64,000 nucleotides of DNA from an uncultured Verrucomicrobiae bacterium (GCA_963706715.1 CAVPNI010000003.1:480001-544000), one strand, 5' to 3'. Shown: positions 5,011 to 28,678, counted from the first letter of the stretch. Numbers and translations are program-made. Notes: generated from the sequence alone by a model not told the origin.

Positions 5011-5288
5011 TGTTCAACAGGGATGGTGATGGTATAAGGAATCAACTTCTCCGAAGCAGTCGGATCCGGAGGAATGACAAAGGAATAGCGACGAACTCCC
5101 GGATTTTGCTGACGCCGTTCAAACTCGTACTTATAAAGATTCCTTTGCGCAAAGTACTGACGCTTTGCGGAGTCAGCCATGCCCACGCTGTAGCCTTGTT
5201 GCCATTTTGTACGAGGCGGGGTTGTAGAGCTACAGGCGGACATGGTGGCGAGTCCCCCGACAAGGCCGATGAGCAAAATGCCTTTCAT
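5007..5288 (-). CDS. T4SS lipoprotein (VirB7-like)
   Basis: Lipobox-like MSAC, 93 aa, coupled to flanking genes. Confidence 0.55.
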   Translation of the reverse strand: MKGILLIGLVGGLATMSACSSTTPPRTKWQQGYSVGMADSAKRQYFAQRNLYKYEFERRQQNPGVRRYSFVIPPDPTASEKLIPYTITIPVEQ

Positions 5289-6853
5289 AGAGCGACCTCC
5301 TGGTTAGCATTCGCTAAAATTCCTTGAATAATGTCTCGTGCTTTCCGTAAATCACGCTCACGGCGTTCAAAATCAGATCCGGTACTTGATGCACAATAGA
5401 GCATTTCTTTGGAGGCTCGATTTTGGATGGTCCCACAAAGTGGGGCTTGAGCATCCAAATGATAGTAAGTTAACGAGCTATAGCGATTTTTCTCATCGAG
5501 ATGTTCGGGTAAGGGATAGCGGGTAATGACATCTTGGGCAGCTCCGGAAAGATCGATGTCTTGAGCCAAATCAGCGACATCGCGACGATCGTTCATGCGA
5601 GTAAAGAAGAACTGCTTAGCATTTCCAAAAACGATCGGACGAATTTTAGACTCTTTAAATTGTGCGTATTGCTGCACTATGGAGATAATCCACGTGTTAA
5701 ATTTAGAAAGTTGCGCGTAAAACTCCTGGATTAATTCCTCTCCTCCATTGACACCGATAGTTCGGGAGGCCTCTTCGAAGATGACCCGCTTACGGATGCT
5801 ACGAGGAAGTGTAATGATGTGTTGTCGCCCATAATTGGCAATGAGGAAGCCTGCGATTTCTTTCAGTGCTTTGTTCGATTCGGGAATATAAGTGAGATCG
5901 AAATGAGCGTATTTGCCTTTTAGATCCAGGGTGGAATGGCCACACAGAAGTTGCTGTCCGTTCCAGGGAGCCAGGAGTGTGGCGATTTGATTGATTTCAT
6001 CCCGATCATGCTCCGGAAATGGTGCCATGAGCATCATTTGATATAGTTCCAAATGAATGGGGTATTCCTCACGCTTAAACGAAGCGTAGGCCATATTGCG
6101 AATCAGTCGCTCGGTGCCTGGATCTGTGACAAATGTGGAGAGTTGGTCTCCGGAATAATTCGCGAGCCGTGATTCTTGCTCATCCTCGGAAAGTGTTTGG
6201 AATTCAGACCATGCTGTAAGGAAAGTGGATCCGGCTGGCATTGCGGTGTGCTTATAATCCTGAATGGCCATGGCCTGGCGCGCGACTTTCTCCAAACGTA
6301 CAGGATCATCCTCAAGCCATTTCTCCGCAAAGTCGCTGTAGAGTTTTTCAATATATTGGCAGATCTGGGCTTTGCGTAGGTTTCGTTTGTCCTCATCGGC
6401 TGGTGCTCCGGAAAGTTTTAAAACTAATGCGCTCGCCAGGTTAATTTGCTCGGTAGTGAGTGGAGCGCCATGGGTATCGAGGTAGTTGAGGCAAAGGTCT
6501 CCATCATCCCGTATGATAATAGGCTGTGAACCGACTGCTTGCGTCCAGATGCCATAGGTGAGTCCTTCCTCAATGATGAGGGTGTAGCCGTAATAAGGAT
6601 CAGTTTGGGTAAGCAGATCGGTAACGAATGCCGACTTGCCAGCTCGACTCATTCCTACTAGGGCGGCTAATTGTGGAGTATCGGAAACAAATGTCTTAAC
6701 ACCAACCAAGGTGTTATTAGGTCCATCATAGAGTGCTTCTGCTCCATCTAGATGTCCGGTAAATGAGCTGCTCATGGGGAGTAAGCAACAGAGCCACGAG
6801 CTATCTCCTCGGTCTTGGTGGCTGGTATAGTTCCCCCAGTTCGATTCTGTCAC
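5285..6853 (-). CDS. virB4: VirB4 ATPase, C-terminal half of a split gene
   Basis: Walker A GMSRAGKS, Walker B VIFEEA; begins with WGNY, which is also near the end of the 27500-28678 half. Confidence 0.85.
   Translation of the reverse strand: MTESNWGNYTSHQDRGDSSWLCCLLPMSSSFTGHLDGAEALYDGPNNTLVGVKTFVSDTPQLAALVGMSRAGKSAFVTDLLTQTDPYYGYTLIIEEGLTYGIWTQAVGSQPIIIRDDGDLCLNYLDTHGAPLTTEQINLASALVLKLSGAPADEDKRNLRKAQICQYIEKLYSDFAEKWLEDDPVRLEKVARQAMAIQDYKHTAMPAGSTFLTAWSEFQTLSEDEQESRLANYSGDQLSTFVTDPGTERLIRNMAYASFKREEYPIHLELYQMMLMAPFPEHDRDEINQIATLLAPWNGQQLLCGHSTLDLKGKYAHFDLTYIPESNKALKEIAGFLIANYGRQHIITLPRSIRKRVIFEEASRTIGVNGGEELIQEFYAQLSKFNTWIISIVQQYAQFKESKIRPIVFGNAKQFFFTRMNDRRDVADLAQDIDLSGAAQDVITRYPLPEHLDEKNRYSSLTYYHLDAQAPLCGTIQNRASKEMLYCASSTGSDFERRERDLRKARDIIQGILANANQEVAL
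6827..6839 (+). repeat. Left att core of nested satellite, ATAGTTCCCCCAG
   Basis: Exact 13-bp direct repeat with 27527-27539; TGGGAA arm-like repeats nearby at about 6915-6934. Confidence 0.9.
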
Positions 6854-7123
6854 TGTACACTCGTCCTTTATTTATCCATATCTACAGCTAAATTGATGTC
6901 CCAAAAATGCCAAAATGGGAAAGAAATTGGGAAGTTATCCCTCCATTTCAGGAACGTTTATGACGTCCTTTTTACAAGGTTAAAAGGTCTCCATGTAGAC
7001 CCGAAGGGATTCTCCTGAGTTCCCAATCGAGAAAGCCGAAGGGATCGATTTGAATCCTCTACCTCTTCCGAACCCTCAGTTGCTCAAGCGTTGCCCAATT
7101 TCCGATCAAAGACTCATCACCGC

Positions 7124-27436: not shown

Positions 27437-27499
27437 AAATGGGGGAAATAATGGGAAATACCACCGACGTCAAGCAAGTCATGGGTGTAGATTTTATGC

Positions 27500-28678
27500 C
27501 TATCTACAGGCTAGTAAGAGGTGAGAATAGTTCCCCCAGCACCATCCAGGCCAGGACTGAAGCCAGATGTTTTTACTCGTGGACTCTGTTGAAATGTTAC
27601 TTGTCCAACACTGAGCGTCGGCCATTTGACCAAAGGCGCTTTCGATTAGGCGTGTCTTGGAAATGAGCGATTGTTCATTTTCCGCCCAGAGGTGAACGAT
27701 GAAATCGTAGTTGATGGGCACAACGGCTCCTGAAACAAGCTTATCAATTCTCGCTTCGCGATTTTGAATGGCTGTTAGGGTTTCTCGTCGTCCTTCAGCT
27801 TGGTAGTCTCCAGAGAGTCTGGTGAGGATGTTTTGTTCCCGCTTTTTCTCTTCGGAAACGTTGAGGGATCTTAGGTTAATGGTGATGGAGTAATCCAGAA
27901 AGGGCAGGTTGGTCAGGTACCACATGATTCCTGGCCAGGCTCGCTGCGGACGTCGTTTTAGGATGACGAAGTTGTGGAAGTATCCGTCATAGAAGCATCC
28001 AAAGTTCTTTCCTCCCTGGCAGCCACTATTCCACCAGTTTTGTTGTATGGTTTCGGCTGGATTAAACTTTGTCAGCGGATCAAATCCATTCCGTTTCAGG
28101 TATGAAGGATTAAAGAATGCTGCGAAGGTATTGGCCAAATCCTCATCTGTTTTAGGGCGGATGCTTCCACCGATTTGCTGCAGGAGTGAAGTGATGGTCC
28201 GACGGTGCTGCTCGAAAGCCTCGTCAAACTGCTCTAAAAGAGCTTGATTGTGTTTTAAGAGATTTTCTCTGTTAGCTCCCTTTGGAGGGGCTACCGGAAT
28301 TTTTTGGGACAAATACAGAGAGAGTTTTTCCCTGCGGAGTTTCCCTTCGTTTGATTGAGCAAGATATCGATTGTATCGCTCATTTCGCTGTAACTCAGCC
28401 CAGCTACCGGGCGTGCAATGTTTATCAGTGTATTCTTTGTAAGCGGCTAATTCTTGGACGTAATTCCCATTTACTTCCCATCTGAATTGCGCACGCAGTG
28501 TTGGCGAAAGTAAATGGAGGATGTGTCTGCAAATGTCCGAGAATTGTTCCAAGATCACGTCGCTTGCCTGTCGGAGATCCGGAAGGGAAATGTCATATCC
28601 CCTGGAGACGAAACCACGTGTATTGAGTTCGTTCCAAATGATGAGGTTTTTAGCGATCCAGCCGTCCGGAGGGTTCAT
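27500..28678 (-). CDS. virB4: VirB4, N-terminal half of a split gene
   Basis: Follows virB3-like gene; ends SWPGWCWGNY plus 8 element-derived residues. Confidence 0.85.
   Translation of the reverse strand: MNPPDGWIAKNLIIWNELNTRGFVSRGYDISLPDLRQASDVILEQFSDICRHILHLLSPTLRAQFRWEVNGNYVQELAAYKEYTDKHCTPGSWAELQRNERYNRYLAQSNEGKLRREKLSLYLSQKIPVAPPKGANRENLLKHNQALLEQFDEAFEQHRRTITSLLQQIGGSIRPKTDEDLANTFAAFFNPSYLKRNGFDPLTKFNPAETIQQNWWNSGCQGGKNFGCFYDGYFHNFVILKRRPQRAWPGIMWYLTNLPFLDYSITINLRSLNVSEEKKREQNILTRLSGDYQAEGRRETLTAIQNREARIDKLVSGAVVPINYDFIVHLWAENEQSLISKTRLIESAFGQMADAQCWTSNISTESTSKNIWLQSWPGWCWGNYSHLLLACR
27527..27539 (+). repeat. Right att core of nested satellite
   Basis: ATAGTTCCCCCAG, identical to 6827-6839; TGGG(G)GAAATA/TGGGAAATA repeats at about 27440-27460. 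Confidence 0.9.

Follow-up and report, generated by a model that had tools for sequence, protein, structure and literature searches.

Does a mobile island that splits a conjugation gene of its host element serve as a switch of transfer, or has it put that element out of action? This question is raised by a 64,000-nucleotide stretch of DNA, called here the window, which corresponds to positions C3:480001-544000 of a soil-type Verrucomicrobial genome (G000; 3.04 Mb in four contigs, of which C3 is one). In this window an integrative island of 20.7 kb (20,713 bp) lies inside the virB4/traC gene of an integrative and conjugative element (ICE), referred to as copy A in order to distinguish it from a second ICE copy in the same genome (copy B). 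An original prediction, made from the sequence alone, proposed that the island is a satellite whose excision rebuilds virB4 and ties transfer to its release. We analysed the locus using two genomes of the same genus (G001 and G002) for comparison, and favour, with a probability of about 60%, a recent insertion, off-target (at a secondary site) or newly retargeted, that disables the ICE, over an evolved switch. Coordinates are those of the window unless a contig is given.

Gene-splitting elements whose precise excision by their own recombinase rebuilds the reading frame include skin in sigK, the Listeria comK prophage and the Anabaena nifD element. They are fixed at their site across strains, and a developmental or infection cue governs when they excise. 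In Firmicutes, IMEs, or integrative and mobilizable elements, are inserted site-specifically by serine recombinases in the traG (VirD4), maff2 and snf2 genes of ICEs of the Tn5252 superfamily (PMC5357655, PMC5704250), and it has already been proposed that ICE induction could trigger excision of the IME and rebuild the conjugation module (PMC5704250). Tyrosine-integrase IMEs integrate in the nic site of the origin of transfer (oriT) of Tn916/ICESt3-type ICEs (PMC5704250), and 29 IMEs nested in ICEs have been described in Faecalibacterium as 'matryoshka' structures (PMC12084326). The tRNA-specific islands NBU1 and SGI1 integrate at secondary sites when their preferred site is absent (cited in PMC5704250).

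Insertion site and reading frame

The island is bordered by the 13-mer ATAGTTCCCCCAG, present as a direct repeat at 6827-6839 (attL core) and 27527-27539 (attR core). The window holds no third match, one mismatch being allowed; 0.07 matches are expected there by chance, and two or more were seen in none of 100 shuffled sequences. In the whole genome (3.04 Mb) it has three occurrences: one at each end of the island and one at C3:150855-150867 in ICE copy B. At this last position the left flank of the window, a single core and the right flank follow each other with every letter matching. Copy B therefore provides a natural empty site, which fixes the boundaries of the insert to the base. Four DNA sequencing runs, none of them of the source sample, matched the locus weakly (share 0.07-0.09), and no RNA run did. 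One of the four, an unrelated metagenome run from drinking water, yielded a 309-nt contig of a relative that also spans the site without interruption (8 differences over 254 nt); in the other three, from soil, contig pieces of 151-264 nt covering the integrase region were found with 0-1 differences. An exact 20-mer made of P arm and core had no match among the metagenome contigs. Integration at the 13-bp core was site-specific and conservative. Inside the cores, the P arm (27437-27526) extends from the integrase start to the attR core and can be aligned with the P arms of the relatives whose integrases are 83% and 86% identical, and the P' arm (6840-6863, plus strand) is a decayed tRNA-Gly 3' end which keeps the T-loop TTCGATT but not the acceptor part.

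Both halves of the split gene are encoded on the minus strand. The N-terminal half (27527-28678, 384 aa) belongs to an open reading frame (ORF) of 27500-28678, which reads ...SWPGWCWGNY, continues for eight residues encoded by the insert and stops at 27500. The C-terminal half (5285-6839) counts 513 aa after the core; its ORF extends to a GTG at 6853 in the island arm (5285-6853) and thus starts within the insert, its translation VTESN-WGNY-TSHQDRGDSSW... reading WGNYTSHQDRGDSSW... Rejoined at the core, the two give a frame of 384 + 513 = 897 aa. An alignment with seven full-length homologues (894-1023 aa) places the junction of the halves inside the motif QTWPGW.WG.Y, and no residue is lost or duplicated there. 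The two core positions given by the original prediction are hence confirmed by exact matching, by the shuffles and by the empty site, and its in-frame join by the translations and the homologue alignment.

Identity of the split gene

A search with the intact paralogue on contig C2 (894 aa) returned 639 homologues with E-values up to 1e-5. The 120 of these that were listed stem from Verrucomicrobial genomes and metagenomes and mostly measure about 890-1020 aa; some are called 'TraC family protein' or 'type IV secretion system protein TrbE' by their sources. More distant homologues (about 45% identity) carry the domains PF19044 and PF11130. The two halves themselves had no match in Pfam. In NCBIfam the C-terminal half matched TIGR02746 (TraC-F-type; E = 2.7e-10, 38.8 bits for a cut-off of 567) and TIGR00929 (VirB4_CagE; E = 2.6e-7, 29.2 bits for a cut-off of 643), so that in the comparison with VirB4 profiles, which the original prediction had suggested, both scores lay far below the curated cut-offs. 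Among PDB sequences, no match was obtained with a profile of the halves and their homologue alignment, nor by phmmer with the C-terminal half.

The C-terminal half contains the Walker A sequence GMSRAGKS, whose residues G67, M68, G72, K73 and S74 are invariant in 36 sequences. An AlphaFold (AF2) model of this half, built from the 36-sequence alignment, reached a pLDDT of 83.2. Its nine best Foldseek matches were all VirB4 proteins, with HerA and TrwB ranking lower; the best was VirB4 of Thermoanaerobacter pseudethanolicus (4ag5/4ag6; E = 8.5e-12, TMt 0.75-0.78), and TrwK/VirB4 of R388 (8rtd, 7o43) was also among the nine. The modelled fold of the C-terminal half is that of VirB4, and it is this predicted fold that settles the identity of the gene. 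Since residues 1-32 of the C-terminal half are modelled as disordered, the cut would fall just before the ATPase domain, at its boundary with the N-terminal domain. Few motifs of the family are as well conserved as the one in which the cut lies. Around the split gene lies a type IV secretion system (T4SS) and conjugation gene cluster with weak TrbI- and VirB5/TrbJ-type matches, a coupling protein, a relaxase-like gene, ParA and Topo III.

Target sites of related integrases

Loci of related integrases were collected from other genomes and from metagenomes; 24 could be assessed, several of the metagenome loci being duplicates of one another. In 23 of them the 300 nt upstream of the integrase start contain tRNA-derived sequence, most often a displaced tRNA 3' end about 110-130 nt away. 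This was the case for all three genome relatives at 61-83% identity, for all ten relatives at 36-48%, and for 10 of 11 metagenome relatives, including the closest one (86%); the eleventh locus ends at a contig end. A tblastn search for VirB4 gave no match in 19 loci (154 kb) and none in 14 others (0/33 in all). Relatives that keep away from virB4, named by the original prediction as speaking against a switch, are therefore what was found, and the homologous integrases next to split virB4 genes for which it had suggested a search did not appear among the 33 loci.

Unlike those of its relatives, the island integrase has neither a tRNA nor a displaced tRNA 3' fragment beside it, its att arm retaining just a decayed tRNA-Gly end. 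By position, the 13-bp core is homologous to the tRNA variable loop and T-stem, and the next 24 bases correspond to a decayed T-loop and acceptor strand, in which TTCGATT is retained and the remainder has diverged. None of the 46 tRNAs of the genome matches the reconstructed attP beyond the T-loop, and among 401 genomes of the order this P'-arm variant occurs in one, the source genome itself.

The left arm of the island aligns with the sequence that follows the terminal tRNA-Gly repeat of the ICE (53996-54040) and with the matching island end of G001. In addition, a remnant of another island of this family, from its left end (54041-55580, plus strand), stands in tandem with the ICE at this repeat; it contains insertion sequence (IS) debris at 54155-55358, and its segment 55359-55580 is 98.6% identical to 6972-7192 of the island. 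The alignment of the left arm and the tandem remnant together indicate that the island family normally resides beside the ICE, at the tRNA-Gly site of the latter, and that the present copy lies inside it. With the tRNA habit of the relatives and the decayed tRNA-Gly arm, the virB4 site is most likely an off-target one.

Timing of the insertion

Over 6063-6839 and 27527-30432, together 3,683 bp spanning the site, no difference separates ICE copies A and B. Whether the island entered A or left B, this must therefore have happened more recently than any substitution in this region. Farther left the copies differ at 17 positions, of which 15 are synonymous and 2 non-synonymous, with a ratio of non-synonymous to synonymous rates (dN/dS) of about 0.04; judged from these differences, virB4 was under constraint until recently. 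The dN/dS analysis suggested in the original prediction hence speaks for past constraint and is silent on the time since the event. As a test of decay it was rejected, the 3.7 kb having accumulated no differences since then and the older ones reflecting past constraint only.

The virB4 gene of copy B is itself cut near codon 469 of the C-terminal half by a 1.12-kb IS (C3:148370-149491), of which 16 other full-length copies exist. The relaxase-side part of copy B seems to lie some 50 kb distant in inverted orientation (C3:200-207 kb), next to a displaced tRNA-Lys 3' repeat (C3:198461-198505).

Occupancy of other virB4 genes

None of eight other virB4 genes of the genus (copy B and the C2 copy, four in G001 and two in G002) is split at the site. 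In a collection of 5.8 billion proteins we found 23 short proteins resembling the N-terminal half, and none ended at the site: ten reach the motif and all ten continue through it, and the remaining 13 stop or leave the frame before it. Copies A and B of the ICE were the only ones seen with the exact core; 3 of its 13 bases differ in the C2 copy, and likewise in one G001 copy.

Genes of the island

The tyrosine integrase (26285-27436, minus strand; Pfam Phage_integrase, 68.3 bits) is open for 383 aa, and its residues 1-381 align with those of its relatives, in agreement with the intact integrase noted beforehand at the right att site. It is the sole member of its clade in the genome, as tblastn returns only itself. 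It lies 63 bp downstream of the N-terminal half of virB4 on the same strand, and neither a promoter-like nor a terminator-like site was found in 26200-28000; with this arrangement, read-through from the T4SS operon is possible.

At the opposite end, 7124-7792 (minus strand) encodes a DNA-binding protein of the excisionase family (222 aa) with three HTH_17/MerR-type repeats (Pfam HTH_17, 50.1 bits; TIGR01764 excise, 55 bits for a cut-off of 28.8; excisionase families of PHROGs), which is 52% identical to the ICE's own protein at 32220-32933. It is followed by three tandem RadC-like paralogues on the plus strand (8093-9285, namely 8093-8476, 8482-8853 and 8908-9285), with weak Pfam RadC matches and 49% identity to the ICE gene at 31697-32071. 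Next come an IS630-family IS (9413-10440, plus strand; Pfam HTH_Tnp_IS630 and DDE_3), with 13 other full-length copies in the genome at 99.2% identity or more, and an ABC-type ATPase, possibly a defence gene (10417-11688, minus strand; Pfam ABC_tran; PADLOC mad3, E = 7.7e-20, and mad8, E = 5.7e-10).

The middle of the island is occupied by a cluster of Rhs repeats on the minus strand (13716-19880; Pfam RHS_repeat), made of ORFs at 15690-19880 (1396 aa) and 13716-15227 (503 aa) with a small ORF between them, and with many related copies elsewhere in the genome. After 2.8 kb devoid of long ORFs there is a primase-helicase (22753-25383, minus strand) with a PrimPol-like N domain, PriCT_2, D5_N and DUF5906 in Pfam, which also matches the P4-family primase TIGR01613 (253.9 bits for a cut-off of 108.7) and PHROGs DNA primase (E = 1e-99). 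Between primase and integrase lie two small ORFs. One of them (25428-25700, minus strand, 90 aa) matched no family in Pfam, NCBIfam, PADLOC or PHROGs; by tblastn it has counterparts beside the integrase in nine related loci, at 34-68% identity.

No relaxase, coupling protein or T4SS gene was recognised in the island with Pfam, PHROGs, PADLOC and, for six island ORFs, NCBIfam, small ORFs included, and no non-coding DNA common to island and ICE, as a candidate shared oriT, was found. The PHROGs scan disclosed no capsid-hijacking or other phage-satellite genes. A phage satellite was considered and rejected, the PHROGs matches being limited to integrase, excisionase and primase. The element is an integrative island, and the label of satellite given to it at first is unproven.

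The host ICE and its surroundings

The genes downstream of virB4 (1-5288, minus strand) are further T4SS genes with weak Pfam matches to TrbI and to T4SS proteins of VirB5/TrbJ type. The T4SS ORFs adjoining virB4 align end to end with their G001 counterparts, and by this comparison the T4SS block looks otherwise intact. A 483-aa ORF at 790-2241 contains about 650 bp (1591-2237) which neither ICE copy B nor the G001 counterparts (275-289 aa) possess.

On the other side, the rest of the ICE (28675-53995) comprises, according to Pfam, the upstream T4SS ORFs, the RadC-like/HTH_17 pair, ParA, an AbiE pair (with an AbiEii toxin gene at 35268-35972), a group II intron, Topo III, the coupling protein and the relaxase-like gene. 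The intron, identified with Rfam, is complete (36037-38030, minus strand), with a reverse transcriptase/maturase ORF at 36205-37884, and a copy 99.95% identical to it lies at C4:279717-281746. Cargo resembling a defence or stress module occupies 38149-44076 (minus strand), with an HNH protein, a 781-aa protein with two HATPase_c-type domains and a ClpB-like AAA protein. The right end of the ICE is a 45-bp repeat of the 3' end of tRNA-Gly(GCC) (53996-54040, plus strand); the tRNA itself lies 6.9 kb to the left of the window (C3:473084-473159), adjoined by the ICE's own tyrosine integrase. Just beyond the ICE, an ORF of 1849 aa (58347-63896, plus strand) has UvrA-type and multiple ABC/P-loop matches.

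The IS copies and the group II intron make this a genome heavily loaded with mobile DNA. All four contigs of G000 end in Rhs-like sequence. The genus includes genomes of 0.9 Mb in a single contig, as opposed to the present one of 3.0 Mb, in which IS copies number in the dozens and several ICE copies and many Rhs repeats are found, and this lineage may be in transition towards genome reduction.

Discussion

We consider that an island of a family using tRNA 3' ends probably entered virB4/traC of a tRNA-Gly-borne ICE at the 13-bp core. In a genome lacking a matching tRNA, this landing would have been either the use of a secondary site or a first step of retargeting. The occupied ICE would make two VirB4 fragments only, leaving its mating channel dead unless another ICE copy helped. 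The integrase and the HTH_17 protein could still excise the island and rebuild virB4, and transcription of the T4SS operon may read into the integrase. Precise excision that restores virB4 follows from the chemistry of recombination, and it is hence no evidence for an evolved switch.

Several observations weigh against this interpretation. The match between island and target is perfect (13/13), with sharp edges, better than at many secondary sites. By our own arithmetic, 6.1 million positions should contain a fixed 13-mer 0.09 times, and if any of the seven 13-base windows containing a 7-bp overlap is accepted, about 0.6 sites are expected per 3-Mb genome; a perfect secondary site met by chance is plausible though lucky, and chance is possible without being a comfortable explanation. 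Moreover, the arm without a usable tRNA end is conserved at a second locus, C3:954913-957446, where a 2.5-kb copy of the island's left end is 91.5% identical overall, at least its first 24 arm bases being identical. This copy abuts an inverted 26-nt 3' fragment of tRNA-Gly(TCC), in a junction that does not fit simple integration, and the conserved arm hints that the lineage may have left tRNAs some time ago.

The core is also a hypervariable micro-region in the closest virB4 orthologues of the genus. One G001 orthologue (C41) has F for W in the core; another (C25) keeps ten core bases two nucleotides out of register, with compensation just downstream; and in the G002 orthologue on C24 (about 286-302) 9 of 12 bases differ between flanks that are about 88% identical. 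The tyrosine of the motif is kept in 122 of 123 family proteins, the exception being the G002 protein, and two of five distinct genus orthologues lack it. No second copy of the G002 variant core exists in the three genomes. This variability could represent footprints of earlier recombination at the site, escape from insertion or slippage in a run of G, which are indistinguishable here. Finally, the recombination genes and the adjoining T4SS ORFs all look intact, and the layout of the integrase would suit a coupling to ICE induction.

These points lead to the first alternative, in which the island targets virB4, induction of the ICE triggers its excision, VirB4 is rebuilt and the island travels along or re-enters virB4 of the recipient. 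We regard this as unlikely. In its favour, restoration in frame is possible, the integrase and excisionase-family genes are intact, the integrase and the N-terminal half of virB4 share one orientation without a terminator-like site in the interval, paralogues (52% and 49%) of the ICE's HTH_17/RadC-like pair occur on the island, the island's att arm has departed from tRNA sequence, the core varies within the genus, and the same hypothesis has been published for IMEs in traG of Tn5252-type ICEs (PMC5704250). However, we are dealing with a single instance, with 0 of 33 integrase loci at virB4 and 23 of 24 at tRNA sequence; no other split virB4 was found, nor the exact core in other virB4 genes checked. 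The island lacks a recognisable relaxase or oriT-like DNA shared with the ICE, an unrecognised oriT being possible, and in the same cell the site of copy B is unoccupied, its virB4 being IS-broken. Thus of the original prediction there stand the in-frame split, the intact integrase and the restorable 897-aa ORF, whereas the tying of transfer to release found no comparative support.

A more elaborate form of this idea, which we hold to be somewhat less probable again, is that a descendant of a tRNA-Gly island has been retargeted to the near-invariant VirB4 motif, with operon read-through driving its exit upon ICE induction; the scrambled cores of the genus would then be footprints of a conflict between ICE and island.

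The insertion would be neutral if the VirB4 pieces cooperated or if the intact 894-aa VirB4 encoded at C2:473416-476088 served in trans. The cut just before the ATPase domain and the GTG start that the island arm offers to the C-terminal half would allow for such an outcome, but it appears improbable, since the cut falls in a highly conserved motif of the family, the C2 paralogue is only 49-58% identical and a two-piece form ending at the motif was seen in none of the 23 short relatives. Least credible of all is a mis-join of the island into a repeat common to ICE copies A and B during assembly: these copies are identical for 3.7 kb around the site and contigs end in Rhs-like repeats, but a mis-join would not yield a 13-bp repeat with integrase and excisionase at the two ends, in the standard att layout of the relatives, and copy B has distinct flanks of its own.

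When the off-target or newly retargeted insertion is compared with known systems, it shares with skin, the comK prophage and the nifD element an ORF that excision rebuilds, here at the level of sequence, and it differs from them in that the element is not conserved at the site across relatives. In its gene content the island resembles P4-like islands with integrase and primase-helicase at tRNA genes. Common features are an integrase beside att, an excisionase-type HTH protein and a P4-family primase; the cargo here consists of Rhs and ABC ATPase genes, and no phage-satellite genes were found.

Like the Tn5252-type IMEs presented in PMC5357655 and PMC5704250, the island is a small element that brings its own recombinase, is flanked by direct repeats and disrupts an ICE gene for conjugation. 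The published IMEs use serine recombinases, recur at given sites across many ICEs and, as their authors define them, possess relaxases, whereas we describe one case with a tyrosine integrase of a tRNA-using clade, a virB4/traC target, a Verrucomicrobial host and no relaxase detected. The IMEs at the oriT of Tn916/ICESt3-type ICEs are likewise tyrosine-recombinase elements at a conserved ICE sequence, but in the account of PMC5704250 their target is non-coding and recurrent, and here it is a coding motif used once. The closest parallel in behaviour is that of NBU1 and SGI1 as cited in PMC5704250, where a family with a tRNA habit meets no matching host tRNA and the best look-alike site is used; the identity of 13/13 is unusually good for a secondary site, and the arm had already diverged from any tRNA. 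Literature searches, made partly by title and with the supplementary IME target tables of PMC5357655 outside their scope, found no virB4-splitting element. Unusual in the present case are the type of recombinase, the target gene and the phylum, and the case provides a clear record of an att site changing its specificity.

If the island did excise upon induction of the ICE, it would be a first among IMEs in ICE genes in three respects: VirB4 as the target, a tyrosine recombinase acting on a coding target, and a host outside Firmicutes; the empty site of copy B would then offer a natural control. A one-off would have its value too, since it captures an att site that has gone part of the way from the 3' end of a tRNA to a protein-coding motif, and shows how nested mobile elements disable ICEs in an IS-loaded genome.

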